From: Terriglobales bacterium
GTDB lineage: Bacteria > Acidobacteriota > Terriglobia > Terriglobales > Acidobacteriaceae
DNA length: 64,000 nucleotides
NCBI GenBank assembly: GCA_035567135.1
Contig: DATMQI010000112.1
Span: 51,297 to 115,296 of the forward strand
Direction of reading: 5' to 3'
The notes under the pieces: model-generated
The model's input: only the letters and a program-made list of their open reading frames with translations
Told to the model about the DNA's origin: nothing
Databases searched by the model: none
Program-made: the position numbers and the translations under genes
Shown here: in pieces, positions 19,204 to 59,295 of the stretch
Position numbering within the stretch: the stretch's first letter is position 1
How the letters are laid out: each line of letters starts with the position of its first letter

Positions 19204-19223
19204 GTCAGTAACTCCTCTACCTC

Positions 19224-26004: not shown

Positions 26005-26069
26005 TTGTGCCTCAAGTTTTTTTTGAGATTGCAACTCTATCTAAAATGTTGCCTGCGTCCTGCCCGGAC

Positions 26070-29000
26070 TTACAGGCTGGAGTCGCCGTCGAAGAAACTC
26101 GGATCCCAGGGCTCAGGTCTCTCTAGACGAGCCGCCAAGCGCTGGTTATTTGTCCGATAAAAATATCGCCAGGAGGCAAGTTCCCGATGATGCGGATTCA
26201 TACTTTCAATGATCCGCTGTTTCTCAGAGCTGAAGCCGACGGCTTCGAGAATATAGATGCCCTCGTCGTGGCACCTGCGCAATGCCTGGTACAGAATGGG
26301 TCTGAGCAATTCGCTCTTGCCCGGCTCTGCCTGCAGATCGACAAGGCGCATGCGCTTCAGCCCCAGCCCGGGATTGTCCTGCCGGCATACGATTCCGTAT
26401 GCGGCAAGGTCATCCCCGTTATTCACGCTCAGCACCCACGCATTGTTTTTCTTGAGAGCATTTCCAAAGTGCCACTCCAGCACCTCGCGCGAGCGGCAAG
26501 CCCGCAAACCGGACGAACTCTTTCGAACGCGGCTCCAGAATTGCTCAAAGCTCTCGTCAAAGTGCTTGGAGAAACGAACCTCGACTCCGTTTCGTCTGGA
26601 ATGCAGGGCCCGTCCGGTGAGAGCGTCTCGAAGGAACAGTCCGGCGGAGAGCGGGTAACTCAAGCCCGGCGCACCTGGGAACTCCCTCTTGTGAAGAAAA
26701 CTCATGGTGAAAGCGCGATAGTTGGTAATCCAGAATGAGGACCGGTCCCAGGCGCCTGCCGGAACTCGCAAGCATTGGAACATCTCTTGCAGCTTCGACG
26801 CTTTGGCGTTGACCGTAGTATTCAGAAACAGGTCAACATTCGGCTGGTTGAAAAACTCGCCGAGCAGAGCGAAAGAGTAAGGACGATAACGGGAATCGAC
26901 GACCAGAGAGCGGCTGGTGGCGACCAGCAGCGGTTCATCGTCGAACTCGTATAGCAGGGGAATGTTCGCAATTGATCCGACGATTTCCTGGTCGGCATTC
27001 TCGCATACCCAACCGATCGGCCATCGCGATGTTCGTTGATAAGCCGGGTTGCGGTTCCACAAATCGACCCATTCTTCATATTTCTTGGGCTGGAGCCCGT
27101 AACGGGATTCCAGGGCTGCAATTTGGGGATAGTCCTCGAATGTGAGTTCGCGCAGCTGCGGTGCAGCGGACTTAGAACCTCTTTTTGCCGATCGGGACAA
27201 CTCCTTGTCCATTTCGGCGTCTTTCAAACAGACTCGCAGCTTGTCGGCCAGCAAGTCGACATTCTCCTCATGGAACATGGACTCGTGTCCGCCCCGAATT
27301 TTATGAAGTTCCAAATCTCCGCCAATCATTCCATTCCAGCTGGCATGAAAATCCCAATAGCGGCCTTTGGGCCAGTCAGTGGATTGGAAGAACACCACGC
27401 GTCCCGGATACGGCTTCGGGCGATAGACAAATGAAGCCGGATGCACGATGTGCTCCAGATCTTCGAGTCGCTCGATGCTTACACGGCGGTGGAAGGCATG
27501 CAAAGCGCGCCAGTAGCGCACACTGAGACGACGGCGAACGCCAATGACTCGATCGGTGAGGAAATCGGCAAGTCCCGGCAAGCCGCTGCGGCGAAGATTG
27601 GAAAACTGGAATCCGACCCTTCTGCGCAACAACTCGCTCCGGCTTTCCTGCGAGAAGTCCTCGTAATAAGCGGGATTTTGCGCGTCGAAGACCACCAGGA
27701 GCGCAATTTCTTCTCCTTGCTCGATCAGTTGTCTGGCAATCTCGTAGGCGATGACCCCATTTACGCACAAGCCGGCGATAAAGTAGGGCCCTTTGGGTTG
27801 CACTTCCCGCATGCAGCGGAGCAGGGCTCCGGCAATGTCTTCGAGCTTATACGGAACCTGCAAACGCGCAGCCTCAGATGCCGGGAGATGGAGTCCCAAG
27901 AGCGGACGATCCGTGCCCAAGCGGTGAGCCAATGGAAGGAAGAGTGGCCCACCCCGAACCCAAAACAGCGGCGGCTTGGAACCTTCCGGCTGAATTGGAA
28001 CCACCGCGGGATGATGAAGGGGTATTTCCTGTCCGCCTACTAGCCCCGCCAATTGCCGAATCGTAGGCGCTTGGAATATGTTGGCCAGCGTGAGTGCCTT
28101 CCCCAATCGTTGCTCAATCCGGAGCAAGAGCTTGGCGACCAACAGCGAGTTGCCACCCAAATCGAAGAAATTGTCGGTGATGCCGATCTCTTGCTTGCCA
28201 AGAACCGCCTTCCAAACTTCCACCAGTTCGGACTGCAGGGCATTCTCTGGGGGAACAAATGTTGTTGCGGAGACCGTCTGTTCCGCTGTGAGAGCCTGGC
28301 GATCCAGTTTGCCGTTCGGCATCAAGGGCAAGGTTTCCATGGTTACAAATGCCGACGGCACCATGGGCTCCGGGAGCCTCTTGCTTAAAAAGCTGCGTAG
28401 CTTGTCCGAATCAAATTGCGTCGCATTGAGTGGCACAACGAAAGCAACCAGGCCGGGTTCACCTTCCTTGCCTTCACGCAGCGCCACCGCCACTTGCCGC
28501 ACTTCCGGATAGTCAGAAATTACCGCTTCAATTTCCTCCAGTTCGATTCGAAAGCCGCGAATCTTTACCTGATGATCGAGCCTTCCAAGGAGTTCCAGAG
28601 TGCCATCCGGCAGCCAGCGGACCAAGTCTCCAGTCTTATAAAGCCGAGCACCAGGAGTTCGCTGAAATGGATCGGCTATGAATCTTTCCGCGGTTTCCGC
28701 AGGGCGGTTCAGATATCCACGTGCGACGCCAGGTCCACCGACGTAAAGCTCGCCCGGCACACCGACTGGCAAAAGGTTCAAGTGAACGTCGAGCACATAC
28801 ACTTGAGCGTTTGGAATCGGACGACCGATCGGAACCAGCCTCGACGGCTGACCCGCTTCGCACCTGTGCACCGTACTCCACACGCTGGCTTCCGTGGGAC
28901 CGTATTCGTTGTACAGGGTGGCGGCAGGTAGCAGCCGATGATGACGCGCGACGAGCTCGGCAGGACAGCTTTCTCCGGCAACAATTGTCACCTTTAAGGA

Positions 29001-31307
29001 CGCCAATTCTTCCGGCTTTGCCTGATCCAATAGCAGGCTGTACAGGGACGGAACGCACAAAAGATGCGAAACGCGGTGCTGCGCAATCAGCGGCGCAAGT
29101 CGCGTCAAATTCCCCTGAAGCGGCCCTGGAGTTAGGACCAGAGATCCGCCGCGGCACAAAGTGCCAAAAATACCTACGAGCGAACTGTCAAAGGCAAATG
29201 ACGAGAGTAAAAGGAAGCGTCCGGCATCCGGCCCGTAGTAAATTGAGCGGGCGTAGGTGGAGTGAACCAGATTACGATGCGTAATCTGGACTCCTTTCGG
29301 TTTGCCGGTTGAGCCCGAGGTGTAGATCACATAGGCTAAGTTCTCGGGTCCAGCTTGACTGGACACCGGTGTCGTGCTTTCCCCTTCCACACGCGCCCAT
29401 TCCGAGTCCAAACACAGAACTTCGACGTCGTCCGCAACGGGCAACTCTGCTTTCAGATGTTGCTGGGTCAGGAGCACATGAAGCTGAGTGTCGGCAAAGA
29501 CATGTTGCAGCCGTTCGGCGGGATACGTGGGATCCAACGGTACGCATGCCCCGCCGGATTTCAGCACCGCCAGAATCCCGACAATCATTTCGGATGAGGG
29601 CTCGACGAACAGCCCAACCGGGATCTCAGGACCAACGCCGTGCTGTTGAAGGTACGCCGCCAATTGATTGCTTCTGCGGTCGAGCTCAGCATAGGTCAAC
29701 TGTCCGCGGCCATCGACGACAGCCTCGGCATCAGGAGCCCGTTTGACCTGATCTACGGACAAGTCGTGCAGGCGAAGATGTGCTGGAAATGTGGCGCTAG
29801 TGGCATTCCAGTCTACGCAGAGCTGCTGGCGCTCCTGCGCCGAAAGGATTGGCAGAGCGGAGACATGCTGGTCCGGATTCGCGCAGGCACTCTCCATGAG
29901 CAACGTAATATGCTCCGCCATGCGAGCGACCGTTTCAGGTTCAAATAGATCAGTGCTGTACTTGAAGCGCCCCACGATGCCGGAGGGACGGTCATCCAGT
30001 TCGAGGCACAAATCAAACTTGGAAATTCCGGTGTCAACCTCCGACTGGGTGAGAGCCACACTCCAACCATCGTGCGACTGAGGCATCGGTGGTTCCAGGG
30101 TCAATAACACCTGGAACAGTGGATTGAAGCTCAAGCTACGATTCGGGCGTACGGCGTTCACCACCTGGGTAAACGGAGCATCGTCATTCGATAAAGCATC
30201 CAGGGTCACGTTGCGCGTGCGGCGCAGCAATTCGCGGAAGGTGGGATCACCCGCCAAGTCGTTTTGCAGAACGACCGGATTCATAAAGTATCCCAAAAGG
30301 CCTTCCAACTCGGAGCGCTTGCGTCCGGAGCTCACCGTTCCAATGGCCACGTCATCGCGCGCAGAATAGCGATGCAGGAGCGCGGCAAAGCCAGTCAGCA
30401 GCGTCATAAACAAGGATGCGCCTTCTTGCCGACTCAATACCTTCAAGGCGTCAGCCAGGTTTTTGGACAGGGAGACGGGGTGAATTGCACCGCGGAAACT
30501 CTGGATTGCGGGACGGAGATGGTCGTAGGGCAGCTGCAGAGCAGAAGGATTCGCACTAAGCCGCTCCCGCCAGTATGCCAATTGGGAAGATAGCCGTCCG
30601 CCGCGAGGAAGCCATTCCCGCTCCCAGATGGCGTAGTCCGAATACTGGATTGGCAACTCGGGCAGAGGTGACGCTTCTCCTCTAGAAAAGGCCGTGTACA
30701 GAGCAGCCAACTCGGGCAGAAGTACCCGGTAAATCGAGTAGCCGTCGAAAATAATGTGATGAAGGGTTAAGAACAGACGATGTTCAACGTCGCTGAGCCG
30801 GACCAATAAAACGCGGAACAGCGGCCACCGGGACAAATCAAAGGGACGCATCGCGTCTTCGACCGCCAAGCGATGTGCTTCTGATTCTCGTTCCGCGGCT
30901 GGGAGTTGACTCAGGTCGACAAAAGGTACGGCCACCGGAGCCGGTGGGCCGATCAACTGGACGGGTTCGGCTTCGGCCAGAGTAACGGTAGTCCGCCAGG
31001 CCTGGTGCCGCCGTACGATTTCGGTCAGGGCGAGTTCCAGGGCATGTACATCCAACGTCCCCTGACGATGGATGGTCACCGGTTCGTTGTAAACCGGGAT
31101 GCCGGGAACCATCTGCGTGTGCAGCCAAATCTGTTGCTGCGCGAACGACAGGGGTGCCGTATCGCCGTTGGCTCGACGCGTGACCGCGTTCGTAACCGCC
31201 AGTTTGGCAGTCGACGCCGTGGTAGGTTCCTTAACTTGTGCTATGTTGCCCATCTTGGGGGAGTCGCCGTGAGTCAGTTCCAACCCACTCGCGCTACTTC
31301 GGGGCAC
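26070..31307 (-). CDS. non-ribosomal peptide synthetase, C-A-T-TE plus C-terminal tandem-GNAT-like domain
   Basis: C domain: LSFAQQQIW and HHIIFDGYS. A domain: LAYVIYTSGSTGKPKGV, FAFDSSL, NEYGPTE, GELYVGGPGVARGY, YKTGDLVRW, KIRGFRIELEEIE and PNGKLDR. T domain: FFDLGGNSLL. TE domain: YFIAGLCVNG...VVFDA...GGHESMF. A further 361-aa extension follows. The start could be 31307 or the ATG 54 nt downstream. Confidence 0.9.
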   Translation of the reverse strand: MPRSSASGLELTHGDSPKMGNIAQVKEPTTASTAKLAVTNAVTRRANGDTAPLSFAQQQIWLHTQMVPGIPVYNEPVTIHRQGTLDVHALELALTEIVRRHQAWRTTVTLAEAEPVQLIGPPAPVAVPFVDLSQLPAAERESEAHRLAVEDAMRPFDLSRWPLFRVLLVRLSDVEHRLFLTLHHIIFDGYSIYRVLLPELAALYTAFSRGEASPLPELPIQYSDYAIWEREWLPRGGRLSSQLAYWRERLSANPSALQLPYDHLRPAIQSFRGAIHPVSLSKNLADALKVLSRQEGASLFMTLLTGFAALLHRYSARDDVAIGTVSSGRKRSELEGLLGYFMNPVVLQNDLAGDPTFRELLRRTRNVTLDALSNDDAPFTQVVNAVRPNRSLSFNPLFQVLLTLEPPMPQSHDGWSVALTQSEVDTGISKFDLCLELDDRPSGIVGRFKYSTDLFEPETVARMAEHITLLMESACANPDQHVSALPILSAQERQQLCVDWNATSATFPAHLRLHDLSVDQVKRAPDAEAVVDGRGQLTYAELDRRSNQLAAYLQQHGVGPEIPVGLFVEPSSEMIVGILAVLKSGGACVPLDPTYPAERLQHVFADTQLHVLLTQQHLKAELPVADDVEVLCLDSEWARVEGESTTPVSSQAGPENLAYVIYTSGSTGKPKGVQITHRNLVHSTYARSIYYGPDAGRFLLLSSFAFDSSLVGIFGTLCRGGSLVLTPGPLQGNLTRLAPLIAQHRVSHLLCVPSLYSLLLDQAKPEELASLKVTIVAGESCPAELVARHHRLLPAATLYNEYGPTEASVWSTVHRCEAGQPSRLVPIGRPIPNAQVYVLDVHLNLLPVGVPGELYVGGPGVARGYLNRPAETAERFIADPFQRTPGARLYKTGDLVRWLPDGTLELLGRLDHQVKIRGFRIELEEIEAVISDYPEVRQVAVALREGKEGEPGLVAFVVPLNATQFDSDKLRSFLSKRLPEPMVPSAFVTMETLPLMPNGKLDRQALTAEQTVSATTFVPPENALQSELVEVWKAVLGKQEIGITDNFFDLGGNSLLVAKLLLRIEQRLGKALTLANIFQAPTIRQLAGLVGGQEIPLHHPAVVPIQPEGSKPPLFWVRGGPLFLPLAHRLGTDRPLLGLHLPASEAARLQVPYKLEDIAGALLRCMREVQPKGPYFIAGLCVNGVIAYEIARQLIEQGEEIALLVVFDAQNPAYYEDFSQESRSELLRRRVGFQFSNLRRSGLPGLADFLTDRVIGVRRRLSVRYWRALHAFHRRVSIERLEDLEHIVHPASFVYRPKPYPGRVVFFQSTDWPKGRYWDFHASWNGMIGGDLELHKIRGGHESMFHEENVDLLADKLRVCLKDAEMDKELSRSAKRGSKSAAPQLRELTFEDYPQIAALESRYGLQPKKYEEWVDLWNRNPAYQRTSRWPIGWVCENADQEIVGSIANIPLLYEFDDEPLLVATSRSLVVDSRYRPYSFALLGEFFNQPNVDLFLNTTVNAKASKLQEMFQCLRVPAGAWDRSSFWITNYRAFTMSFLHKREFPGAPGLSYPLSAGLFLRDALTGRALHSRRNGVEVRFSKHFDESFEQFWSRVRKSSSGLRACRSREVLEWHFGNALKKNNAWVLSVNNGDDLAAYGIVCRQDNPGLGLKRMRLVDLQAEPGKSELLRPILYQALRRCHDEGIYILEAVGFSSEKQRIIESMNPHHRELASWRYFYRTNNQRLAARLERPEPWDPSFFDGDSSL
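26073..27155 (-). other. C-terminal tandem GNAT-fold (FemAB/CelD-like) domain fused to the NRPS
   Basis: Residues 1385-1745 of the NRPS align end to end with the stand-alone ORF 31340..32551. 28 of the first 60 aligned residues are identical by my count. Both end in the same terminal motif, WDPSFFDGDSSL versus WDPSCFDGDASL. Confidence 0.75.
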
Positions 31308-31339
31308 TGCTGAGTCGAGTACAAAATCTTCACTGGATT

Positions 31340-32551
31340 TTAGAGGCTTGCGTCACCGTCGAAACATGAGGGATCCCAAACTTCTGGATTTTTCAGGATC
31401 TCGGCCAACTCGGGGTTCGCGGTCTTGTAAAAATAGCGCCAAGATGAAAGAACGCGCTTGTGCGGCAAAAGACTATCGATGACACGCTGCTTCTCCGGGG
31501 CAAAGCCCATGGCTTCCAACATATGAATGCCCTCCCTCCGGCAGCGTTCGAAGGCATGACAAAGTAACGGTCTGAGAAGTTCCGTCTGCCCGTTGAGTGC
31601 CTGAAAATCCACCAGGCGTACTCGCTTCAGCGAAAACAACGGGTTGTCCTGGCGAAGGAAAACCGCGTAGGCAGATAATTTCGAGCCCTCGCTGAGGGTC
31701 ATCACCCAGGCCCGGCCGTCTGCCAAAGCGTGCTTGAAATGCCAATCCAGCATCGGCTGGGAGCGATTGGCCAGAAGGCGGTCCGGAGAACTCTTACGCA
31801 ACGTTTGCCAGAAGTCTTCAAAACGTTCGTCAAGTTTGGTGCAGAAACTGGGTTCCAAACCATTGCGGCGTATTCTCAGCGTCCGGCCTTCGAGAGTGTC
31901 GCGAAGAAAGAGGCCCGCCGACAAAGGATAATGGAGCAGCCCTTTCGCTTCTCGCATTTCCTTTCTTGCCAGCAGACTCGCACTGAAGCCTTTGTAGTTT
32001 GTGATCCAAAAGAAAGCTTGATCCCATATTCCCGCGGGCACGCGCCGGGCACGAAAGATTTCGTGGGCCTTCAATGCACCGGGTCCGACAGTAGTATCGA
32101 GAAATAGATCGACTTGTTTCTGGTTGAAGAACAAACTTAAGAGCGGTACAGAGTAGCTTCGATAACGTTCATCGACTACCAAGCCACGAGTGGATGTAAC
32201 AATCACATTGCGGCTGCCCAACTGGTAGCAACGCGGAAGATTCCCAATATAGCCGACCACGCGGTTATCTTCGTTTTCCAGCAACCAGCCGATGGGCCAA
32301 TTCGGAAGACTCTGGCACGCAGGATTGTCCGCCCACAGATGGATCCACGCTTCGCTCGTCTCCGTCTCCATGCCGTAGCGAGCCTGCAGTTCGGAAATCT
32401 GCCGATAGTCGTCAAACCTGACCTGACGGAACCGGACGCTGGATTTGGGGACGGGGTCAGTTGGCACACCATCCGCCGGAACCTTCATCGCCTCGAGTCC
32501 GCCCACCGCGTTCGCACTCGCTTCTTTTGAAAACATCTGCGGTTCAGTCAC
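31340..32551 (-). CDS. stand-alone tandem GNAT-fold (FemAB/CelD-like) acyl/aminoacyl-transferase
   Basis: GNAT-like cores VVGYIGNLP...GLVVDERYRSYSVPLL and LSAYAVFLRQDN...RVRLVDFQAL...FERCRREGIHMLEAMGF. Its GTG start shares one nucleotide with the P450 TAG stop. An alternative ATG is at 32536. Confidence 0.7.
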   Translation of the reverse strand: MTEPQMFSKEASANAVGGLEAMKVPADGVPTDPVPKSSVRFRQVRFDDYRQISELQARYGMETETSEAWIHLWADNPACQSLPNWPIGWLLENEDNRVVGYIGNLPRCYQLGSRNVIVTSTRGLVVDERYRSYSVPLLSLFFNQKQVDLFLDTTVGPGALKAHEIFRARRVPAGIWDQAFFWITNYKGFSASLLARKEMREAKGLLHYPLSAGLFLRDTLEGRTLRIRRNGLEPSFCTKLDERFEDFWQTLRKSSPDRLLANRSQPMLDWHFKHALADGRAWVMTLSEGSKLSAYAVFLRQDNPLFSLKRVRLVDFQALNGQTELLRPLLCHAFERCRREGIHMLEAMGFAPEKQRVIDSLLPHKRVLSSWRYFYKTANPELAEILKNPEVWDPSCFDGDASL

Positions 32552-33789
32552 TAGCCTTTACTCCCAAGGAAGGACACCGGCAAGGCGGTGAGGCCGCGCA
32601 ATCCCAGATTCTCGCGCCAGGTGATTGGCCCCGGTTTCAACTGCAAGTTGTGAAGCCGTCGCAAAATCGTTGAAAACGCGATCTGTCCTTCAATGCGCGC
32701 CAGCGGCGCTCCAAAACAGAAATGAGCTCCGAATCCAAACGCCACATGACGATTCTCTTTGCGGCGGATGTCCAAACGATCAGGATCCGGAAAGCGTTCG
32801 GGGTCACGATTCGCAGCGCCCATGACGGCGATTACTGCCTGGCGCTTCTGGATTTTCTTTCCCCCAAGCTCGATATCTTCCGTGGCCAGCCGCGCCGTGT
32901 GCTGACTGGGACTCTCGTAGCGCAGCAATTCCTCCACCGCCGTGGTAATCAAGGAGAGGTCGTTGCGGAGTTCCTCCATCACATCCGGATTCCGCAACAG
33001 GCTCAAGATGCCGTTGGCGATCAGGTTGGTCGTGGTTTCCTGCCCGCCCACCATGGTGACGATCAGGCTTGCGACGATTTCTTCTTCACTGAGCCGGTCA
33101 CCATCGATTTCAGCGGTGAGGAGCGAAGACACCAGCCCCTCGACGGGATGAACGCGCTGCTCGCGAATCGCCTCCCGGAAATAGGTAGTCATTTCGTCCA
33201 AGCTGCTCCGCACTCGCTTGGTGCGGTTTGGGTTGTGCTGAAAGTTACCCAGCATCTCGGCGAAATCCGCGGACCATCGCTTAAGTTGGACGTGATGGGC
33301 AATAGGAACTCCCAACAGCTCTGCGGTGACGATGGCGGGCAGAGGCGCGGCGAAATCGGAAATTACGTCCATTTCACCCAGAGGAAGTACGGAATCCAAC
33401 AACTGGTTGGCGATGTCCTGAATGTGTTGCCGAAGTGCATCCACGCGGCGCGGCGTAAATGCCTGTGAACACAAGCCGCGCAGCCTGGTATGTGCGGGAG
33501 GATCCATGAACAGCATCTGCTTAACCATGACGCTCGCAATTGGACTCAAGTCCGCCAAGCCCATTTGCGAGAGCTGTTCTGGAGTGGGAGTGCGAAGAGC
33601 AGAAAAGTCCAGCAGTACTTGGGTCACATCGCAATACCGAGTGACTACCCAGGCGTGCAGAAAAGGATCCCAGAGCACGGGATCCTCGGTTCGTAAGCGG
33701 CGATAAAGAGGGTATGGATCGGCCAAGACCTCCGGCCTGAGCAGGTGGTACAGGCTCAAGGGAGCTTCCGGTTTGGCGATGACTGCCAT
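32551..33789 (-). CDS. cytochrome P450
   Basis: I-helix MVGGQETTTN, ExxR in EELLRYESP, and heme-Cys loop FGFGAHFCFGAPLARIEG. Confidence 0.9.
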   Translation of the reverse strand: MAVIAKPEAPLSLYHLLRPEVLADPYPLYRRLRTEDPVLWDPFLHAWVVTRYCDVTQVLLDFSALRTPTPEQLSQMGLADLSPIASVMVKQMLFMDPPAHTRLRGLCSQAFTPRRVDALRQHIQDIANQLLDSVLPLGEMDVISDFAAPLPAIVTAELLGVPIAHHVQLKRWSADFAEMLGNFQHNPNRTKRVRSSLDEMTTYFREAIREQRVHPVEGLVSSLLTAEIDGDRLSEEEIVASLIVTMVGGQETTTNLIANGILSLLRNPDVMEELRNDLSLITTAVEELLRYESPSQHTARLATEDIELGGKKIQKRQAVIAVMGAANRDPERFPDPDRLDIRRKENRHVAFGFGAHFCFGAPLARIEGQIAFSTILRRLHNLQLKPGPITWRENLGLRGLTALPVSFLGSKG

Positions 33790-33834
33790 GTTTTGCGAAT
33801 TCGATTTCGACGATGCTGCGGGACGAGCAGCCTT

Positions 33835-35715
33835 TCAGTCCGCGGAAATTTCGGTGGTTAAGATGCGTTCGATTTCGAACGACAGTTCCGCTGCTGTCGG
33901 CGAATCGAAGACCATCCGCAGCGGAAGCTCGATGCCGAAAATATTTCGGACTCGCGCAATCAACTGCGTGCCCAACAAGGAATGTCCACCCAGAAAGAAG
34001 AAATTGTCATTTACGCCCACCTTCTCCAACCCAAGCAGTTCAGCCAGAATGGAAGAGATTTGTTGCTCCACAGGCGTGCGCGGAGAGAGATAAACTTCGT
34101 CCCCGATCGTATCCACCGGGGTCGGTGCTGGAAGCGCTGCGTAGTCAACCTTGCCGCTGGATTTCAAGGGCAAGGAATCGAGTCGCACAAAAACCGGCGG
34201 CACCATGTAGTCGGGCAGTTGGGCACGCAGGTGTTCCTGAAGCGCGCCCCGGGTGAGCTGAGGATCGGAGCTGACCAGGTAAGCCACCAGCCGTTTGTCG
34301 GCGCCATTGTCTGCTCGCGCCACAACCACGCTGGTTTGCACTCCGGGATATTGGTTCAAGAGACTCACGATTTCGTTAGGCTCAATGCGATATCCGCGGA
34401 TTTTGATTTGCTCATCCTTTCGTCCGAGGAAAGCAATCTGCCCATCCGGCAGGTAACGCGTTAAGTCGCCGGTACGATACAGACGGTCGTTGGGCAAGCT
34501 GCTGAATGGATTGAGAACAAAAGCCTCCGCGTCTTGCTCCGGACGATTCAAATATCCCCGCGCCAGACCAGCGCCTCCAATGCATAACTCCCCGACGGCG
34601 CCAACTGGGACCTGCTGCAGATCATCATCCAAAATGTAAGTCTGCACGTTGTCGATAGGACGTCCGATTGTCGGCTGACGATCCGGGCGCTTATCTGACG
34701 AGACCTGACCGGAGGTTGCAACAACAGTGCATTCGGTCGGACCGTAGTTGTTAATCAGGGAAAATGGCAAGTTCCCCGCAGGATACCGATGCAGCGTGTC
34801 AGCCCCAGTCAGCAGCACGCGAAGTGATGTCTGGGCCGGCCAGTCTAACCCCAGAAGACTTTCCGCCATCGGGGTAGGAACGAATCCGATGGTGATTCCT
34901 TGAGCCAGCAGCCAGTCGCGTAGGTTTCTGGCGACTCCGCGCGTCGCATCATCCGCAAAGATGACAGCGGCACCGGCAGTCAGGTAGGGCCAGATTTCCC
35001 AAACGGCTGCATCGAAACCGAAGCTTGCGACCTGACTCGCTCGGTCGGCTCCAGTAACCGAGAAAGCCCGGCGATGCCAGTAGATCAAATTAAGCAGTCC
35101 GGCGTGGGTGATCTGAACAGCTTTAGGCTGACCCGACGATCCCGACGTATAAATCACATACGCAAGGTTCTGGGCGTTGACAGACACAGCCGGTGCGCTC
35201 CGCGGCGGAGTGGCCACGTCCGCATCTCCCTCGTCCATGATCAAGACTTGCCAATCACCGGCAGGCAAAGTCCGCGCGACCTGCGCGTCTGTGATGAGGA
35301 CGCGAAGTTGTGTGTCGCGCAGCATGAATTCCAAACGGCGCACCGGGTAATCGGAATCCATAGGCACGTAGGCTCCGCCCGCCTTCATTACGGCCAGCGC
35401 GGCGACTACCATTCCCGGCGAGCGCGGCAGGCAAATTCCTACCAGCGCTTCCGGACCTACTCCGAGAGACTGTAGATTCTGGGCAAGTTGATTCGCCCGG
35501 CACTCGAGTTGATGGTAGGTCAGGGTCCGGCTATCCGATTTAAGGGCAAGTGCGTCCGGTGTTGCTCTTGCCTGTTCGCTAACCAAATCCGACACAAGCG
35601 ACTCGCGAGGATAGTCACGAAAGGTATTGTTCCAGGCATGGGATGGCATCTCGGTCGGATGCACCGATGCCATTCCGTCAGTAGGGGAGTTCGAAGTGGT
35701 TATTTGCGGCTTCAA
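33835..35715 (-). CDS. stand-alone NRPS loading didomain, A-T (predicted Leu)
   Basis: A-domain cores LAYVIYTSGSSGQPKAV, FGFDAAVWEIW, NNYGPTECTVVAT, GELCIGGAGLARGY, YRTGDLTRY, KIRGYRIEPNEI and SSGKVDY. T domain FFFLGGHSLL. The start is uncertain (TTG 35715, ATG 35673 or ATG 35649). Confidence 0.9.
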   Translation of the reverse strand: MKPQITTSNSPTDGMASVHPTEMPSHAWNNTFRDYPRESLVSDLVSEQARATPDALALKSDSRTLTYHQLECRANQLAQNLQSLGVGPEALVGICLPRSPGMVVAALAVMKAGGAYVPMDSDYPVRRLEFMLRDTQLRVLITDAQVARTLPAGDWQVLIMDEGDADVATPPRSAPAVSVNAQNLAYVIYTSGSSGQPKAVQITHAGLLNLIYWHRRAFSVTGADRASQVASFGFDAAVWEIWPYLTAGAAVIFADDATRGVARNLRDWLLAQGITIGFVPTPMAESLLGLDWPAQTSLRVLLTGADTLHRYPAGNLPFSLINNYGPTECTVVATSGQVSSDKRPDRQPTIGRPIDNVQTYILDDDLQQVPVGAVGELCIGGAGLARGYLNRPEQDAEAFVLNPFSSLPNDRLYRTGDLTRYLPDGQIAFLGRKDEQIKIRGYRIEPNEIVSLLNQYPGVQTSVVVARADNGADKRLVAYLVSSDPQLTRGALQEHLRAQLPDYMVPPVFVRLDSLPLKSSGKVDYAALPAPTPVDTIGDEVYLSPRTPVEQQISSILAELLGLEKVGVNDNFFFLGGHSLLGTQLIARVRNIFGIELPLRMVFDSPTAAELSFEIERILTTEISAD

Positions 35716-35845
35716 GGTCTGTCTCCAAATCAGTCAGAAAGGGGGAAGAAAAGCAACTAAGTTTCTAACCCTGTGGCGACTATGCGCGAATTGAAGGGCA
35801 ACCGTGCCAGTTGCAGGGGTCTAAAGCTGTTCGATAAGGCCAGAG

Positions 35846-37618
35846 TTAATCGGTAAATACCGGAAGGGATGCGTCCTGACCGGTACGCAACATTCCGGTG
35901 GGAGAGTGCTGCGAAGCTGCTCCTTTATGGTGTGGATGGTGAATCTTAATGCCATCCGGAAATGGGTAAGGCTCGCTGAGAAACCAGGTAAATCGGTTTG
36001 CGGTTTCGTCGAACAAGAAGCCTGAGGACATCCAGAACTTTAAACAAGGCTTGTTCTTGGAGGTTGGAAGATATTGGGCCCGCAACTCCTTCAGGCCTGC
36101 GCCTGCGCAGCATTGGACTGCGAACGCAACAATCGCCTTCTCCACATTTCGGCCCATGACGCGGCAGCTCAGTACAAAGTCCGAGATATACGCCACGTCA
36201 GAATCCAGATCCAAGCTGAGGATGCCGGTCAGTCCGGAGTCACCAAACTTATCCTTGACCCTGAAAGCCCACAGCTTCCGGTTGCCGGCTTGCAACCACG
36301 CCTGCAGTTCCTGTTCCGACACTCTTCGTGTCGATAGATTCATCTGGTTGGTTTTATTCATCAACTGGACCACGCGGACGCGATCCGCATCGCCCAACTC
36401 CTCGACTGTAACTTCGGTATCGAGAGAGCGCAGCCACTCCTCGGCGGAACTGACTTCTTTACCCGACAACTGCCGGCGCTTCTCTGCGGCGTACATTTCA
36501 TTGCGGGAGATGTCTTCGGACGTCGCATACGCGGAATCGAAGCAGTCCAATTCCAGAAGCTGGCTGGCAAACAAAGTCTTGTCATCGGGCCACTCAGGTA
36601 CCAGGACTTCGGGAAGGGCCTCCCGGACCCGGGCGCGCTCCACCGGATTGTCATCAATGAACACTGCCGAATCCAGCCCTAAATTCAATTCCGCGGCGAG
36701 CTCGGCGATATTCGCTGCTTTATCGTTCCAGTTGATCCGGTAGGCCGCGAAGTCATGCAATCGCAAAACCATTTCCGGATGTTTGGCCAGTGCCTCCAAC
36801 GCGACACTTTCCTCATTCTTGCTGACAATGGCCAGCAGAATTCCTCGATTGCGAAGGCCTTTAAGAGCTCTCTGGAAATCGAGATACGCCTCGCCCAAAT
36901 AATCGTGCCCGCCCAGACGGAGATTCTGCCATCCCAGATCGCCAACAACTCCGCCCCACAATGTGTTGTCTAGATCAACGATGACGACCTTTTTGGACGC
37001 CCCCAAGACCGCGGAAATTGCGGACTTCACATCTGCCGCAGCTCGTCGGAATACCTCAGCATGAAACGGCGTTTTCGTCAGATACCACAACTTCGCGCTA
37101 TAGGAATTTTTGCCCACCATTTCCATCCAGCGCTGACCGTCGAGCAGGTAAATGCTGCCGCAACTCTCCAGCTCTTCGGCAAGTTTCAAATTCATTTTAA
37201 GCAACAGCTTGCGCAACCCCTGTCCCTTCAGGCTCAGGATTCCGTTTCCACGCAGGTGAAGGGGAATCGTCCAGGACACGACGAACACTGCGCGAAAATG
37301 CTTCTGCGCCTCGCGCAAGCAATCCGCGAACTGCCGGATCTCAGCAAAGATGCGATCCTCAGAAACTGCCACGCCATTGAGCGCGTCAGGAAAAGTGGGA
37401 ACGATCTTCTCCGCTGATGTCCACACCAGGGCAAAATCGGTAGCTTGAGCATGGGCCGGCTGGAGCAACGCCGGAAAGACTTGCCCAAAGGGCGCAACCG
37501 AAACGGAGAGCTGAGGTGATGCGCCACCGTTCGCGAGATAATGACCGAGCGTTTCGAGATTGAAATCGGAAATAAGGTGCAACTTCAAACGGGTGCTCTC
37601 CGTGTCGGCAGGGTTCAT
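35846..37618 (-). CDS. FkbH-like HAD-IIIC phosphatase/acyl-loading enzyme
   Basis: Hallmark VVIVDLDNTLWGGVVGD, ILLAIVSKNEESVALEAL and AVFIDDNPVERARV, plus a C-terminal acyltransferase-like region. The size (590 aa) is typical of FkbH-family proteins. Confidence 0.8.
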   Translation of the reverse strand: MNPADTESTRLKLHLISDFNLETLGHYLANGGASPQLSVSVAPFGQVFPALLQPAHAQATDFALVWTSAEKIVPTFPDALNGVAVSEDRIFAEIRQFADCLREAQKHFRAVFVVSWTIPLHLRGNGILSLKGQGLRKLLLKMNLKLAEELESCGSIYLLDGQRWMEMVGKNSYSAKLWYLTKTPFHAEVFRRAAADVKSAISAVLGASKKVVIVDLDNTLWGGVVGDLGWQNLRLGGHDYLGEAYLDFQRALKGLRNRGILLAIVSKNEESVALEALAKHPEMVLRLHDFAAYRINWNDKAANIAELAAELNLGLDSAVFIDDNPVERARVREALPEVLVPEWPDDKTLFASQLLELDCFDSAYATSEDISRNEMYAAEKRRQLSGKEVSSAEEWLRSLDTEVTVEELGDADRVRVVQLMNKTNQMNLSTRRVSEQELQAWLQAGNRKLWAFRVKDKFGDSGLTGILSLDLDSDVAYISDFVLSCRVMGRNVEKAIVAFAVQCCAGAGLKELRAQYLPTSKNKPCLKFWMSSGFLFDETANRFTWFLSEPYPFPDGIKIHHPHHKGAASQHSPTGMLRTGQDASLPVFTD

Positions 37619-40034: not shown

Positions 40035-40374
40035 CTTGCCAGTATCTGCGACCGATGCCGCTCGCAGCTTCGCCCCCTGAGTCACAGTGCAAACCCGAAA
40101 AGCGAAAACCCCGGAACGACGAATTCTACTCGCGACGCTCTTTAACCTTGAATAGAGAAACGTGTTTTTTAAGGGGAAGGGCGTTTGTTACAAGTCGTTC
40201 AGGTTCGCGTTAGCCGGCCATACCGGACCTAAGCTCTAGTGGCTGCAGGATATACATCCCGGCAAGCCCTTGCAAGAGTCAAAAGCTTAGAGTCCAGAGT
40301 CTCTAGTCGTCATGCCGCTCATCCCCGGGCCGGTGCGAGAGTAACTCACGCCCCTACTAACACATGGCCCATGA

Positions 40375-52323: not shown

Positions 52324-55125
52324 TCATCTGGCCTGCAAAGCGCGTCCACGGTGCTCGGATTCCATGCCAGCCTGGTCGATGCAATTTTTAAGGCATTCGG
52401 CCAGGGTGTTTACTTGCGGTTCAACCAACATGTCGTAATGGTCGCCGGGGATTTCGTGAATATCCAAACTGGAGATTAAACCATTCCAAGCGGCGAGAGG
52501 ATCTTCGGAGCTTCGCAAAGATTTTTCCGCAGCTCGTATGAGAGCAGCCTTGCCCGCGTACGGCTTTAGCTCATAGCGGTCGGCGGCCGTCGCGTTTGAG
52601 TCGCGTACGTCGCGCAACACTTGCGGCACCCGCCAGTTTTTCAGGCTACGGCGTATTCTCTTCCCGGCTATCCTGGGCAGGTCATGAACCCAATGCTGCC
52701 AAGTGGGGTGGAGCAGTAGACCGATCAAGGAGGTGCCCACGGCCTTCAAGTTTCCGGGATAGGTGTCGAAGAGCACCAGCAGGCCGACCTCTTGGCCGCT
52801 CGCGCGAAGCTGCTGCGCCATTTCGTAGGCGACCAACCCGCCGAAAGAAAATCCGCCCAGGAAGTAGGAACCTTCGGGCTGCAGGCTACGAATCTCATTG
52901 ATATAGTGTGCCGCCATCTCTTGAATGCTGGTATGGCAAGGATGCTTGCCGTCCAGACCTTGCGACTGCAATCCGTAAAAGGGATGGTCGGGACCCATGC
53001 GACGCCCCAGTTCATGAAAGCCGATCGCATTGCCCCCCACTCCGTGGATGCAGAAAAAGGGTGGCTCGGATCCGCTCGGCTGAATCGGCACCAGCGAAGA
53101 CCAATGATGCGACCATCCGTCCTGACGCAGAGCCGCGGCCAGTTGTTCAACGGTTGGGGATTCAACCAGCATCGCCAAAGGTAAATTCTTGCCGAGCACC
53201 TGGCCCGCCCGGTACATGAGTTTGGCAGCGAGCAGCGAGTGACCGCCAAGCTCGAAAAAATTATCTCGAGTCCCAATCCGCTTTTTACCGAGCACCTCTT
53301 GCCAAATCTTAATCAACTGTGATTCCAGAGCATCAGTTGCAGCGTTAGTCTCTCCCGAAACTTCAGCTTCAGGCGCCGGCAATCCACGCCGGTCGATTTT
53401 GCCATTCGGCGTCAAAGGCATCGCAGACAGAATCACGAAATCCGATGGCACCATGTGCTCAGGCAAATCGTTCCGCAAATAGCGGCGGAGATCTTGAACC
53501 GTGATCTTAGTTTGGTGCGCAGGCACGACGTACGCCACCAAACGCTTATCACCGCCTTCATCTTCTCTGGCGACGACGGCAACTTCGCGAAGCGCCGGAT
53601 GCTTGGCCAATGCGACTTCAATTTCTCCCAGCTCAATTCGAAATCCACGAATCTTGACCTGGTCATCGGTTCGTCCCACAAACTCAATTTCACCGGATGG
53701 AAGATACCGGGCAAGATCGCCGGTCTTATAGATGCGCGCGTCCGGGTCAGTCGAAAAGGGATCGGAAATGAACTTCTCTGCAGTCAACTCCGGACGATTC
53801 AGATAGCCTCGCGCCACACCGACGCCGCCAATATGAAGCTCTCCAGCCACGCCAATCGGAACCGGATTCAGTTCAGCATCGAGCAGGTAGATTCGCACAT
53901 TCGCCACCGGACGGCCGATGGGAATGTTCTCCGGAATCCGATCAAAATCAGATTTCGGCTCGTACACTGTCGCCGCGATACTGCCCTCAGTGGGCCCATA
54001 AGTGTTGACCCAACGTGCGCGACGCCCCGCAGAGCCAACCCACGCGGCGTATGCCTTTGCTGATACCTTTTCGCCACCGACGATCACCAGCCGTAGACCT
54101 TCGGGCGCCGGCTTTCTCAACTCCGAAATCTGGTGCATCCACTCATGCCAATATGCAGTCGGCAGATCGAGAACGGTTATGCCGTTCCGCTCAACCCAAG
54201 CAAGGAACTCTGGAACCGCGAGTGGCATCTCCTCCGACTTCATCACCAGAGTGGCCCCGCTGAGCCAGGTGATGAACATCTCTTCAACGGCAATGTCAAA
54301 GCTGACCGAACAGAACTGGAGCACGCGGTCGGCAGGGCTCATTGAATATGCCCGCGCCATATTGAGGTTGTAGTTCACCAATCCGGCATGCGGCAGCAGA
54401 ACCCCGCGCGGCTTTCCCGTGGATCCTGAAGTGTAAATAACGTACGCAATGTCGCTCGGCGCTACGCTGATGTTTGGATTGCTCCGAGGCGAGCTGTCGA
54501 GAGCTTCCGATTTCTCCGCCAGCACAAGCACTTCGCAGCCTGCCGATGTGTTCCCTGACAAAATGCCCCGCTCCGTAATAAGGAGTCGCGCGCCCACGTC
54601 GTGAAGCATGTAGGCAAGTCGTTCCTGGGGATACTTAGGATCGAGCGGAACACAAGCCCCACCCGACTTCAAGACTGCCAACACTGCTACTGCGAAATCG
54701 AGCGAGGGGTTCAGACAGATCGCAACTCTCTCATTCGGTCCGACTCCTCGCTCACCCAAATAATGAGCCAACTGGTTGGCGCGCGAGTTGAATTCGCAGT
54801 ATGAGAGCTGCTGGTCCTTCCAGATAACGGCTGCCCTTTCAGGCACGAGTTGCGCCTGGGCTGCCACCAGTTCGTGTAGGCATTTTTCGCGTGGGTACTC
54901 GCATGCCGTCTGGTTCCATTCAGTCAAGATTCTTCGCCGCTCCTCTTCCGTGAGCATACACAAATCCTGTTCCGGACCGCGCTCCGCGATCGGCATTTGC
55001 TCAGATGCAGGAGCGTGCGCCTTCGGCGGCAAAGATGTCCCGATGGGTATGTTCTCTGTTTGCATGGAGGGGCGAGGAACTAAAAAGACTAAGGGCCGTG
55101 TGAACCGTGAGGGAGCCTGCAGCAC
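52324..55125 (-). CDS. non-ribosomal peptide synthetase, A-T-TE (no condensation domain)
   Basis: A domain: IAYVIYTSGSTGKPRGV, VSFDIAVEEMF, NTYGPTE, GELHIGGVGVARGY, YKTGDLARY, KIRGFRIELGEIE and PNGKIDR. T domain: FFELGGHSLL. TE domain: canonical GGFSFGG, LFDT and PGDHYDM. GTG at 55125 or ATG at 55065. Confidence 0.9.
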   Translation of the reverse strand: MLQAPSRFTRPLVFLVPRPSMQTENIPIGTSLPPKAHAPASEQMPIAERGPEQDLCMLTEEERRRILTEWNQTACEYPREKCLHELVAAQAQLVPERAAVIWKDQQLSYCEFNSRANQLAHYLGERGVGPNERVAICLNPSLDFAVAVLAVLKSGGACVPLDPKYPQERLAYMLHDVGARLLITERGILSGNTSAGCEVLVLAEKSEALDSSPRSNPNISVAPSDIAYVIYTSGSTGKPRGVLLPHAGLVNYNLNMARAYSMSPADRVLQFCSVSFDIAVEEMFITWLSGATLVMKSEEMPLAVPEFLAWVERNGITVLDLPTAYWHEWMHQISELRKPAPEGLRLVIVGGEKVSAKAYAAWVGSAGRRARWVNTYGPTEGSIAATVYEPKSDFDRIPENIPIGRPVANVRIYLLDAELNPVPIGVAGELHIGGVGVARGYLNRPELTAEKFISDPFSTDPDARIYKTGDLARYLPSGEIEFVGRTDDQVKIRGFRIELGEIEVALAKHPALREVAVVAREDEGGDKRLVAYVVPAHQTKITVQDLRRYLRNDLPEHMVPSDFVILSAMPLTPNGKIDRRGLPAPEAEVSGETNAATDALESQLIKIWQEVLGKKRIGTRDNFFELGGHSLLAAKLMYRAGQVLGKNLPLAMLVESPTVEQLAAALRQDGWSHHWSSLVPIQPSGSEPPFFCIHGVGGNAIGFHELGRRMGPDHPFYGLQSQGLDGKHPCHTSIQEMAAHYINEIRSLQPEGSYFLGGFSFGGLVAYEMAQQLRASGQEVGLLVLFDTYPGNLKAVGTSLIGLLLHPTWQHWVHDLPRIAGKRIRRSLKNWRVPQVLRDVRDSNATAADRYELKPYAGKAALIRAAEKSLRSSEDPLAAWNGLISSLDIHEIPGDHYDMLVEPQVNTLAECLKNCIDQAGMESEHRGRALQAR

Positions 55126-55143: not shown

Positions 55144-56595
55144 TCAGGCAGCGCCGGAGCCGCGAAGCACTGCGGGGATTGTTCTAGCGAGAATTTGAAG
55201 ATCAAGCCACAAAGACCAGTTGCGAACATACTGAAGGTCCAGCTCCATCCACTGGTGGAAAGGCAGCGAACTTCGGCCGTTCACCTGCCACAGACAGGTA
55301 ATTCCTGGGCGCACACTGAAACGGCAACGTTGCCAGTCCTCGCCGACTTCGGTAAACAATTCGTAATCCCGCAACTGCAGGGGCCGAGGGCCGACTAGAC
55401 TCATATCGCCGCTCAGAACATTGAAGAGTTGGGGCAATTCGTCAATGCTCGTCTTGCGCAGAAACCTTCCAACCGGCGTGAGCCGGGGATCGTTCTTGAT
55501 CTTGAATACTGGACCAGAGACCTCATTGAGGTGTTCGATCTCACGCAGCTTGTCTTCCGCGTTCATCACCATGGTGCGGAACTTGAAGATGGTGAAGGTG
55601 CGTTTGTTGAGCCCCACCCGCTCTTGCGCGAAGAACACCGGTCCGGGGGTAGTGAGTTTTACCAGAACGGCGACCACCAAAAGTACCGGCGCCAGCGCAA
55701 TCAGCAGCAGCAGAGAAAGTGTGAAGTCCAGGGTACGTTTGATCACCGTAGGCCAGCCTTCTTCCATGCCGCTATAGTGGGTGATCAACGGAGATCCTTC
55801 GAACTCCGCCATCGAATTTATATTCCTGAGATTGAAAAGGTCCGGCATGCCCCGGATGATAATTCCCTGCTGCTCGCACATGGCCGCAATATCGGACGCG
55901 TGATCATGAAACGAACGCATGGGTATCGCGATAACCACTTCGTCGACTACGCTACGCCGCAAGAATTTGCGCAGATCCGTCAGGTTGCAACGCACCGTCC
56001 AACCGTTTTTTTCGACCTCTTCGATTCCGGCCCACGGGTTGTCGGCAAAACCGATAATCCGGTAACCCAGTTCCGGCCGGGATCGGATCCTCTTCGCAAG
56101 TTCAATCGCCCGTTGATTGGCTCCGACGATCAACATGTTCCGCAGATCGCGTCCGTCCCCGCGGATGCGGCGTAGATACGTGCGGATCGCAATTCGGACG
56201 CACACCGCGGCGCAAGTACTGAATCCCCAAAAGATGAATAAAAATTCCAGGTTCACCATTCGGAAGTGGAGAATGAAAGAAAACATCCCCAATACCAGAG
56301 CTGACAGCGAGGTCGCTTTGATTGCGTCCAGGGCCTCAGCCCGGCGGCTCGAGAGTCGTTTGGAACCGTACAAACCGAGCGTCGTGAAAATGAGATGCCA
56401 GATCCACAACAGCGCAGTAAACATTACGAAATTCTGCAGCTTGATCCGCATCTCGAGGAACTGGGTGAAGAATACCGAAGCGCCCATCGCCAGGTGAGGC
56501 AGCGTGGCCACTCCAAACGAGAGCGCCAGGATCAACAAGTCGAATACCTTGCTGGCACTGGTCAATACTCGGCGTTTCATCGATCCCATTGGCAT
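55144..56595 (-). CDS. polyprenyl-phosphate glycosyl-phosphotransferase (WbaP/EpsB-type priming enzyme)
   Basis: N-terminal TM helices and a CoA-binding-like linker. The C-terminal bacterial sugar-transferase domain reads KRTLDFTLSLLLLIALAPVLL...GPVFFAQERVGLNKRTFTIFKFRTM...SLVGPRP. Confidence 0.9.
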   Translation of the reverse strand: MPMGSMKRRVLTSASKVFDLLILALSFGVATLPHLAMGASVFFTQFLEMRIKLQNFVMFTALLWIWHLIFTTLGLYGSKRLSSRRAEALDAIKATSLSALVLGMFSFILHFRMVNLEFLFIFWGFSTCAAVCVRIAIRTYLRRIRGDGRDLRNMLIVGANQRAIELAKRIRSRPELGYRIIGFADNPWAGIEEVEKNGWTVRCNLTDLRKFLRRSVVDEVVIAIPMRSFHDHASDIAAMCEQQGIIIRGMPDLFNLRNINSMAEFEGSPLITHYSGMEEGWPTVIKRTLDFTLSLLLLIALAPVLLVVAVLVKLTTPGPVFFAQERVGLNKRTFTIFKFRTMVMNAEDKLREIEHLNEVSGPVFKIKNDPRLTPVGRFLRKTSIDELPQLFNVLSGDMSLVGPRPLQLRDYELFTEVGEDWQRCRFSVRPGITCLWQVNGRSSLPFHQWMELDLQYVRNWSLWLDLQILARTIPAVLRGSGAA

Positions 56596-59281: not shown

Positions 59282-59295
59282 AAGTCTGGCCTCGC

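Follow-up and report, generated by a model that had tools for sequence, protein, structure and literature searches.

A nonribosomal peptide synthetase module lacking a condensation domain in a polysaccharide operon of uncultured Terriglobales, and its possible role in glycan aminoacylation

Nonribosomal peptide synthetases (NRPSs) such as EntF of enterobactin biosynthesis and AB3403 of Acinetobacter baumannii carry condensation (C), adenylation (A), thiolation (T) and thioesterase (TE) domains in the order C-A-T-TE. NRPS-like synthetases of A-T-TE architecture, among them the atromentin and polyporic acid synthetases, produce quinones and furanones in fungi and some bacteria (PMC9047271). In the cell envelope, the AlmEFG system places glycine onto the lipid A of Vibrio cholerae by means of an adenylating enzyme, a carrier and a transferase (PMC4278540). 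We describe here an A-T-TE gene that lies between the genes of a priming polyprenyl glycosyl-phosphotransferase (PGT) and a Wzx-like membrane protein in a polysaccharide operon of a soil-dwelling Terriglobales bacterium (Acidobacteriota; GenBank assembly GCA_035567135.1). The window is the whole stretch of DNA that was analyzed, 64,000 nucleotides (nt) at positions 51,297 to 115,296 of contig DATMQI010000112.1, and all coordinates count from its first letter. The original prediction, made from these letters alone, had listed Dlt, MprF and FemAB-type systems as the agents of envelope aminoacylation, a list from which AlmEFG was omitted. Our results suggest that a polysaccharide is decorated with a basic amino acid through a previously undescribed route.

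The A-T-TE gene and the segments of its product are as follows, with residues numbered along the longest open reading frame (ORF).

52324..55125, minus strand: A-T-TE protein, longest ORF, 933 amino acids (aa) from a GTG
55063-55065, minus strand: probable ATG start of the A-T-TE protein, giving 913 aa (MQTENIP...), from the starts of orthologues
54955-54957, minus strand: start of the A-T-TE protein as annotated by NCBI (M57), giving 877 aa
54958..55125, minus strand: N-terminal leader, residues 1-56, unconserved and predicted to be disordered
53356..54957, minus strand: adenylation domain, residues 57-590, from Pfam, NCBIfam and motifs
53116..53328, minus strand: thiolation (carrier) domain, residues 600-670, with the codon of the phosphopantetheine (Ppant) serine Ser630 (GGHSL) at 53236-53238
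52381..53073, minus strand: type I thioesterase domain, residues 685-915, from Pfam and the triad
52846-52848, 52765-52767 and 52438-52440, minus strand: codons of the TE triad Ser760, Asp787 and His896, respectively
52516..52740, minus strand: TE lid, residues 796-870, net charge +8

In a Pfam scan, the protein matched AMP-binding (residues 89-442, E=1.8e-83), AMP-binding_C (residues 501-576), PP-binding PF00550 (residues 603-666, E=5e-13) and Thioesterase PF00975 (residues 689-909, E=5e-29), while a match to Condensation PF00668 was absent. It scored 461.6 bits with the NCBIfam amino-acid adenylation model TIGR01733 (cut-off 317.4), and its residues 56-913 align to the A-T-TE part of the EntF termination module (model positions 431-1288). 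The Ppant Ser630 lies in LGGHSL, the A10 lysine is Lys576, and the catalytic residues of the TE are Ser760 in GGFSFGG, Asp787 in LFDTYPG and His896 in GDHYD. Motifs A3-A10 are conserved in 121 of 121 family sequences, in which Ser630 and the three TE residues are also invariant or nearly so. An AlphaFold model of the protein (predicted local distance difference test [pLDDT] 76.6, with the N-terminal 35 residues disordered) was superposed best by Foldseek on the A-T-TE parts of AB3403, EntF, SrfA-C and ObiF1 over ~890 columns (E 2.7e-65 to 8e-60). Judged from these matches, the protein comprises an NRPS adenylation domain, a carrier domain and a type I NRPS TE, and lacks the HHxxxDG-bearing Condensation domain that precedes the A domain of a canonical C-A-T-TE module.

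The Pfam and motif checks thus bear out the 933-aa ORF with intact A, T and TE domains (GGFSFGG, D, H) and no C domain that had been predicted. The frame exists where it was placed, on what has to be corrected to the minus strand, and its GTG is probably not the start used, because close orthologues begin at ATG 55065. Close adjacency to both neighbors also holds, although the gaps between longest ORFs are 18 nt to the priming transferase gene and 69 nt to the Wzx-like gene rather than the 19 and 70 nt claimed. The start at ATG 55065 leaves a gap of 78 nt to the priming transferase gene, and the distance to this upstream gene is 18-186 nt depending on the start chosen. Neither a signal peptide nor a membrane segment is present in the A-T-TE protein, and it is therefore plausible that it acts on the cytoplasmic side, ahead of flipping.

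The A-T-TE protein is 100% identical to a protein from a Terriglobales bacterium metagenome-assembled genome (MAG) and belongs to a large family from uncultured Terriglobales. Identity to each of its 120 best database matches is no lower than 51%, and is at least 62% for 118 of them; the matches all derive from Acidobacteriota MAGs or metagenomes. A whole-protein search of a representative library was dominated by giant multimodular NRPSs with summed scores and did not inform the limits of the family. Extra N-terminal sequence of 120-300 residues is found in 76 of 117 family members and matches only positions ~185-456 of Pfam Condensation, which form the C-terminal lobe of that domain; HHxxxDG occurs in 0 of the 75 long relatives that carry the lobe. 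The clade of the window protein has the short leader (residues 1-56, 17% identity) in its place, and the intergenic space in related loci is too small to hold the missing lobe. Since presence and absence of the lobe switch at least 7 times on a neighbor-joining tree, it appears to be a dispensable vestige that has been lost repeatedly. Mean identity by segment is 75% in the TE core, 71% in the T domain and 69% in the A core, compared with 17% in the leader. Decay of the TE in the manner of the C domain was ruled out, the TE core being the most conserved segment. On this pattern, condensation appears to have been abandoned by the family while adenylation, thiolation and TE chemistry have been kept under selection, and the view that the A-T-TE is intact and under purifying selection without a catalytic C domain is supported. 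The earlier description of the enzyme as condensation-less is correct for the window protein, but missed that this is the end point of a decay seen in its relatives.

In order to predict the substrate, the pocket register of the A domain was counted from motifs A4, A5 and A10. Positions 235/236/239/278/299/301/322/330/331/517 in GrsA numbering read D-I-E-D-I-G-T-I-A-K and correspond to D277, I278, E281, D320, I348, G350, T375, I383, A384 and K576. Identical alignment columns yield the textbook Leu code DAWFLGNVVK for an A-T protein encoded elsewhere in the window (33835-35715, minus strand), which validates the register. The code DIEDIGTI[A/C/S]K is found in ~100 of the 121 family sequences; Asp235 is invariant, and the acidic E239 and D278 are conserved in the family. 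Exactly DIEDIGTIAK was not found in the literature searched. Related published codes are DIEDVGSVVK, the predicted Lys code of Rv0101/MmaA A1 (bioRxiv 10.1101/121228), and those of Planktothrix ApnA A1, in which DVEDIGAIEK specifies Arg, DVEDIGGVEK Arg and Lys, and DVEDIGIIAK Arg and Tyr (PMC5311044). The window code agrees with the ApnA Arg/Tyr code at 8 of 10 positions and with the Rv0101 Lys code at 6 of 10, and ApnA A1 also ranks well among the structures that match the A domain (43% identity, template modeling [TM] score 0.87-0.93). The pocket had been read in the same way by eye in the original prediction, and its suggestion that two acidic residues point to a cationic substrate gains support from the resemblance to published Arg and Lys codes. 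The best reading of the code suggests a basic amino acid, Arg or Lys, as the predicted substrate.

By sequence, the TE is an ordinary type I NRPS TE. Its closest Protein Data Bank (PDB) sequences are Skyxy-TE (E=6.8e-28; structure 7CRN, identified through PMC10510592), AB3403, EntF and NocB, followed by the TEs of fatty acid synthase and Pks13. Searched in isolation against NCBIfam, it matched the Pks13 TE region best (E=3e-22) and EntF next (E=1.5e-20), and it did not match the exosortase-associated hydrolase models. The lid sets it apart. Its net charge of +8 in the window protein compares with a family mean of +10.8 (standard deviation 2.3, minimum +5, n=121), whereas the corresponding lid in 34 unrelated terminal NRPS TEs has a mean of -2.7, with only one reaching +8. 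Outside the lid, the A-T-TE protein is acidic. A cationic lid of this kind, unlike those of the 34 unrelated TEs, fits an anionic or membrane-surface acceptor and hints at undecaprenyl-pyrophosphate-linked sugar, a sulfated sugar or the inner leaflet as its partner.

The A-T-TE gene is part of a conserved cassette, of which the following genes are members in the window.

55144..56595, minus strand: priming PGT, directly upstream of the A-T-TE gene, with CoA_binding_3 and Bac_transf; TIGR03025
50815..52254, minus strand: divergent membrane protein, Wzx-like (MOP/Polysacc_synt) from orthologue matches, directly downstream
59296-60018, minus strand: Wza-like Poly_export protein, head of the cassette
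57677-59299, minus strand: Wzz/GNVR co-polymerase, head of the cassette
56785-57543, minus strand: ATPase resembling bacterial tyrosine kinases (BY-kinase-like), head of the cassette
49825-50748, minus strand: sulfotransferase, after the Wzx-like gene, conserved
48209-49759, minus strand: Wzy_C polymerase, after the Wzx-like gene, conserved
38790-40085, minus strand: glycosyltransferase of family GT4, cassette member in most relatives
37981-38793, minus strand: NodB-type polysaccharide deacetylase, cassette member in most relatives

Related loci were examined in 14 independent instances (L001-L006, L011-L013, L015, L016 and L020-L022). The A-T-TE gene immediately follows the PGT gene in 13 of the 13 loci in which the upstream side is present, and is itself immediately followed by the Wzx-like gene in 12 of 14, the copy in L020 being seemingly split. 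In L001 and L022, the Wzx-like gene comes after a two-gene insertion that encodes an FG-GAP/immunoglobulin (Ig) protein and a beta-helix protein. This order of PGT, A-T-TE and Wzx-like genes spans 51-86% identity and four architectures in the A-T-TE slot, namely half-C-A-T-TE, A-T-TE, A-T-A-T-TE and A-T-TE-A-T-TE. The common order of the cassette begins with (NusG-like, HTH_8) Wza, Wzz, BY-kinase, PGT, A-T-TE and Wzx-like genes and goes on to sulfotransferase, Wzy, GT4 and deacetylase genes, after which most loci continue with FkbH, A-T, P450, an unknown protein of 380-400 aa and C-A-T-TE. The original prediction had named a lack of conservation with the exopolysaccharide genes in relatives as a finding that would speak against it; in these 14 loci, the linkage is kept. 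A Chloroflexi locus with the same A-T-TE architecture (L009, 36% identity) was set aside as a different system, with the polysaccharide genes of the window absent nearby, and L007, L008 and L010 were ruled out as ordinary multimodular NRPSs.

Both predicted neighbors were recovered. The upstream gene is a priming glycosyl-phosphotransferase by its CoA_binding_3 and Bac_transf domains and by TIGR03025 (428.7 bits, cut-off 295.6). The downstream gene encodes a polytopic membrane protein that itself matches no family, even with E allowed up to 10; PF01943 Polysacc_synt is matched by 4 of 9 of its orthologues (51-96% identity, best E=3.3e-7), and weak matches also occur at loci L012, L022 and L020. 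Because of these matches in orthologues, on which it depends entirely, the designation Wzx-like is acceptable. With its PGT, Wzy_C, Wzz/GNVR, BY-kinase-like and Poly_export genes, and a Wzx gene assigned by orthologues only, the locus has the gene content expected of the Wzx/Wzy-dependent polysaccharide type. The G+C content is 0.54-0.58 throughout, and matches to promoters and terminators between genes do not exceed shuffled expectation, leaving both horizontal acquisition and separate transcription unsupported.

Three sulfotransferase genes are found in the polysaccharide region (49825-50748, 24910-26034 and 9369-10274, all on the minus strand). They imply a sulfated product, which would be a polyampholyte if it also carried a basic amino acid. 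The NodB-type deacetylase has a weak HfsH-like match. Deacetylation followed by reacylation is known from LpxC/LpxD and MshB/MshC, and by the same logic the deacetylase could supply a free sugar amine as acceptor.

Our preferred reading, on which our confidence is about evenly divided, is that the A-T-TE protein is a working cytoplasmic NRPS termination module, minus its C domain, that transfers Arg or Lys to a lipid-linked glycan before flipping. The A domain would adenylate the basic L-amino acid, Arg or Lys, which would be loaded onto Ser630 of the protein's own carrier domain and passed from there to Ser760 of the TE. From the TE, the aminoacyl group would then go not to water but to a pathway intermediate that is anionic and membrane-bound and offers a nucleophile. 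The most likely acceptor would be the product of the adjacent priming transferase, an undecaprenyl-pyrophosphate-linked sugar, and the nucleophile either a hydroxyl or an amine freed by the deacetylase of the cassette. The modified unit would subsequently be flipped by the Wzx-like protein. The conserved A, T and TE motifs, the loss of C catalysis, the resemblance of the pocket to basic-amino-acid codes and the strict gene linkage are seen in the sequences. What we infer from them is that the TE transfers rather than hydrolyzes, which acceptor it uses, and where its step falls among those of the other NRPS and GNAT enzymes.

Those other enzymes form a second NRPS block in the same cassette.

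26070..37618, minus strand: second NRPS block as a whole
35846-37618, minus strand: FkbH-domain protein (TIGR01686, E=3e-84)
33835-35715, minus strand: A-T didomain protein with the Leu code DAWFLGNVVK
32551-33789, minus strand: cytochrome P450
31340-32551, minus strand: tandem-GNAT protein U403, 403 aa, by predicted fold
26070-31307, minus strand: C-A-T-TE protein fused to a second tandem-GNAT domain, 1745 aa

A paralogue of U403 (53% identity, E=7e-141) makes up the C-terminal end of the 1745-aa C-A-T-TE protein (400 residues; 26070-27299, minus strand); in relatives, this second copy has a gene of its own behind that of the C-A-T-TE. The U403 family has 347 members, all annotated as hypothetical, and neither U403 nor the fused C-terminal domain has a usable Pfam, NCBIfam or PDB sequence match. 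A predicted structure of U403 (pLDDT 84.9, predicted TM score 0.82) was matched by Foldseek to N-myristoyltransferases (E=5e-15, TM 0.5-0.58), which indicates a tandem-GNAT fold; FemX-type aminoacyl transferases share this fold. Going by these models, it is plausible that the tandem-GNAT proteins are N-acyltransferases that draw on carrier-bound thioesters. The C-domain motif of the 1745-aa protein is intact (HHIIFDG). The TE of this protein (~27243-27944, minus strand) reads GLCVNG at the GxSxG site, with Cys in place of the nucleophilic Ser, and is devoid of the HG(V)GGN oxyanion stretch; the Asp and His are retained, and the lid likewise looks Arg-rich. The Leu A-T gene is preceded by the FkbH-domain gene and followed by the P450 gene, and their domain content suggests that a carrier-bound hydroxylated Leu and a glyceryl-type unit may take part in the pathway.

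Several points weigh against transfer of a single basic residue by the A-T-TE protein. Neither the acceptor nor the distinction between transfer and hydrolysis by a TE can be read from sequence, and the choice between Arg and Lys draws on code similarity only. All family members stem from MAGs. In the part of locus L021 that was sampled, the deacetylase is missing. Given their predicted fold, the two tandem-GNAT acyltransferases could perform the actual N-acylations, which weakens the need for the TE as sole transferase; the A-T-TE is yet the lone module with a canonical Ser-TE, and is set apart from the rest. Lastly, the slot in locus L015 (6927-11540) is occupied by a 1537-aa A(Leu)-T-A-T-TE protein, of which module 1 is 54% identical to the window A-T protein and module 2 is 51% identical to the A-T-TE protein. 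This fusion suggests that the A-T-TE may cooperate with other carriers instead of acting alone and ties its function to that of the Leu A-T in the second NRPS block. The enzyme had been predicted to handle a single amino acid and to pass it to the undecaprenyl-linked repeat unit through its TE, an interpretation that is supported in part. Conservation with the polysaccharide genes and the resemblance of the pocket to basic-substrate codes bear it out, whereas lone action, too simple in view of the L015 fusion and of the hybrid cassette that the prediction had missed, and the named acceptor go beyond what the data imply.

It is possible, if doubtful, that the A-T-TE protein is instead one carrier module of a trans-acting multi-protein NRPS that builds a short modified peptide. 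The other parts would be the Leu A-T with its P450, the C-A-T-TE-GNAT protein, the FkbH-domain protein and a stand-alone A protein with an acyl carrier protein and a formyltransferase. The basic aminoacyl thioester would be consumed by the only C domain of the cassette, for which the intact HHIIFDG speaks, or by a tandem-GNAT transferase, while the Ser-TE would serve in release or editing; a finished peptide, and not a single residue, would end up on a glycan or lipid. Conservation of the NRPS genes alongside the A-T-TE gene in most loci is in line with this, as are the two paralogous tandem-GNAT proteins, one of them fused behind the C-A-T-TE, and the L015 protein as a Rosetta-stone fusion. 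That fusion, however, has no C domain between its modules. In addition, the slot in locus L016 (33-4238) holds a tandem [A]-T-TE-A-T-TE protein (1401 aa or more, as the contig ends within it), in which the presence of one TE per module suggests that each off-loads independently through its own TE. The second A domains of the L015 and L016 proteins have the pocket codes DIESSGTVIK and DIESIGTVIK. The A-T-TE gene is also always apart from the other NRPS genes and beside the priming transferase gene, its own TE is fully conserved, and in L020 no A-T, P450 or C-A-T-TE gene occurs within 10 kb downstream.

We consider it unlikely that the TE only hydrolyzes or cyclizes. The free product, such as lysine lactam or a cyclic dimer, would then have nothing to do with the glycan or be attached afterwards by a different enzyme, and the position of the gene would reflect co-regulation only. 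The TE is nearest in sequence to the cyclizing or hydrolyzing Skyxy-TE, AB3403, EntF and NocB, and nothing in the sequence proves a transferase activity. Still, activation of a proteinogenic amino acid followed by its hydrolysis would be a futile cycle, the slot between PGT and Wzx-like genes is invariant across the range of identities and all four architectures, and the lid is strongly cationic compared with those of the unrelated terminal TEs. That the gene is a non-functional, decaying remnant of a C-A-T-TE synthetase, as the decayed C domain might suggest (the C-terminal lobe alone in most relatives, none in the window protein), is scarcely credible in light of the intact 933-codon frame, the A, T and TE catalytic residues invariant in 121 sequences and an identity of 69-75% in A/T/TE against 17% in the leader.

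The window has further features. A sub-cassette at 18901-22878 (minus strand) encodes a luciferase-like monooxygenase (21850-22878), a stand-alone A protein with the pocket DLFSLCLIAK (20156-21853), a formyltransferase (19224-20189) and a small carrier with a GILDSQ motif (ORF 18901-19287). The sub-cassette is conserved in L017 and L019, and its split formylation-adenylation-carrier arrangement resembles the LgrA initiation module. No MbtH-like gene is present in the window. Upstream of the Wza-like gene, where relatives carry an HTH_8 regulator and/or a NusG-like gene, there is a 102-aa ORF (60145-60453, minus strand) without a Pfam match at E up to 0.1. The segment 40375-46361 (minus strand) encodes large secreted repeat proteins (an 845-aa NHL and Ig-like protein and a 1114-aa Ig-like protein), and FG-GAP/Ig and beta-helix proteins of this kind are found at 12594-19202 in L001 and 13528-19737 in L022; the insertions sit at differing points of the otherwise conserved cassette from genome to genome. 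A 514-aa class II aminoacyl-tRNA synthetase of Asp/Lys/Asn type, encoded ~50 kb away from the A-T-TE gene (662-2206, plus strand; tRNA-synt_2 and OB anticodon domain), is probably an unrelated housekeeping enzyme.

In the literature searched, polysaccharide operons with an NRPS module placed between the genes of the priming transferase and the flippase were not described, which is not proof of absence, nor did we find a paper on NRPS genes in polysaccharide loci of Acidobacteria or on NRPS aminoacylation of undecaprenyl-linked glycans. Acidobacteriota are among the most abundant soil bacteria and, through their extracellular polymers, influence how soil aggregates and retains water. We tentatively propose, while thinking it somewhat improbable as a whole, that the product is a sulfated Wzx/Wzy polysaccharide whose lipid-linked units are decorated on the cytoplasmic side, with Arg or Lys by the A-T-TE and with hydroxy-Leu-containing acyl or peptidyl groups by way of the carriers and tandem-GNAT proteins, to give a polyampholytic glyco-peptide matrix polymer. 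If true, this would represent an undescribed class of NRPS-polysaccharide hybrid pathway, in which an NRPS TE takes on the new role of a glycan aminoacyl-transferase, widening the range of acceptors of such TEs to glycans, and would place a further route of envelope-glycan aminoacylation beside the Dlt, Alm, MprF and Fem systems. A zwitterionic sulfated polymer bearing a basic amino acid would be expected to have unusual physical properties. The arrangement is strictly conserved and widespread in an abundant soil lineage. In genome mining, 'NRPS-like' calls beside priming transferases should not be taken as small-molecule clusters.

Among described systems, EntF and AB3403 are the best full-length matches of the window protein in NCBIfam and PDB sequence searches and by Foldseek (E=2.7e-65 and 6.8e-65 over ~890 columns), and share with it the A-T-TE order, the core motifs and a Ser-Asp-His TE. 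The window protein differs in having no catalytic C domain, and hence no upstream donor, in its cationic TE lid and in the setting of its gene, a Wzx/Wzy polysaccharide operon rather than a siderophore or peptide cluster. The aryl-alpha-keto-acid A-T-TE synthetases share the C-less three-domain architecture and the use of the TE as a bond-forming catalyst, yet they activate and dimerize aryl alpha-keto acids. Their A domains are not known to have the Asp235 salt bridge to an alpha-amino group, whereas the window protein keeps Asp235 and Lys517, both typical of the activation of alpha-amino acids, and an acidic pocket in a polysaccharide operon; with Asp235 invariant and a pocket predicted to be of basic-amino-acid type, membership in this group was ruled out. 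The TE of Pks13, also of type I, moves mycolate onto trehalose and provides a precedent for a sugar acceptor. Although no NCBIfam region matches the isolated window TE better, the similarity is limited to the N-terminal half (residues 10-115 of 259), and Pks13 takes as donor a fatty acyl chain of great length made by a polyketide synthase, with no amino-acid adenylation.

The XrtA/PEP-CTERM ligase systems (TIGR03098, TIGR03100/03101) likewise combine an adenylating enzyme, a carrier and alpha/beta hydrolases in exopolysaccharide loci, and the Wzz and kinase genes of the window resemble XrtA-system models. Assignment to the XrtA-associated acyl-CoA ligases was rejected at 235.4 bits for TIGR03098 (cut-off 592.35), as the TE also misses the exosortase hydrolase models; PEP-CTERM-like C-termini are absent in the window, and the exosortase family is absent among the scanned ORFs. 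DltA models gave 245.8-257.7 bits against cut-offs of 476-560, and neither MBOAT nor DltD families were found among the scanned window ORFs of at least 180 aa; membership in the Dlt system was rejected. AlmEFG was similarly rejected, the A-T-TE being fused and no lipid A acyltransferase family being found among the scanned window ORFs. In logic, DltABCD, which performs D-alanylation of teichoic acid, and AlmEFG are alike to the system proposed here: an adenylated amino acid is loaded onto a carrier and then placed on an envelope glycoconjugate, to which it adds positive charge. The window protein differs from both in that A domain, carrier and off-loading domain are fused, and that the off-loader is an NRPS TE rather than an MBOAT protein with DltD or the LpxL-like AlmG. 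It differs further in its pocket, predicted to be of basic-amino-acid type, and in its presumed target, a lipid-linked repeat unit on the cytoplasmic side.

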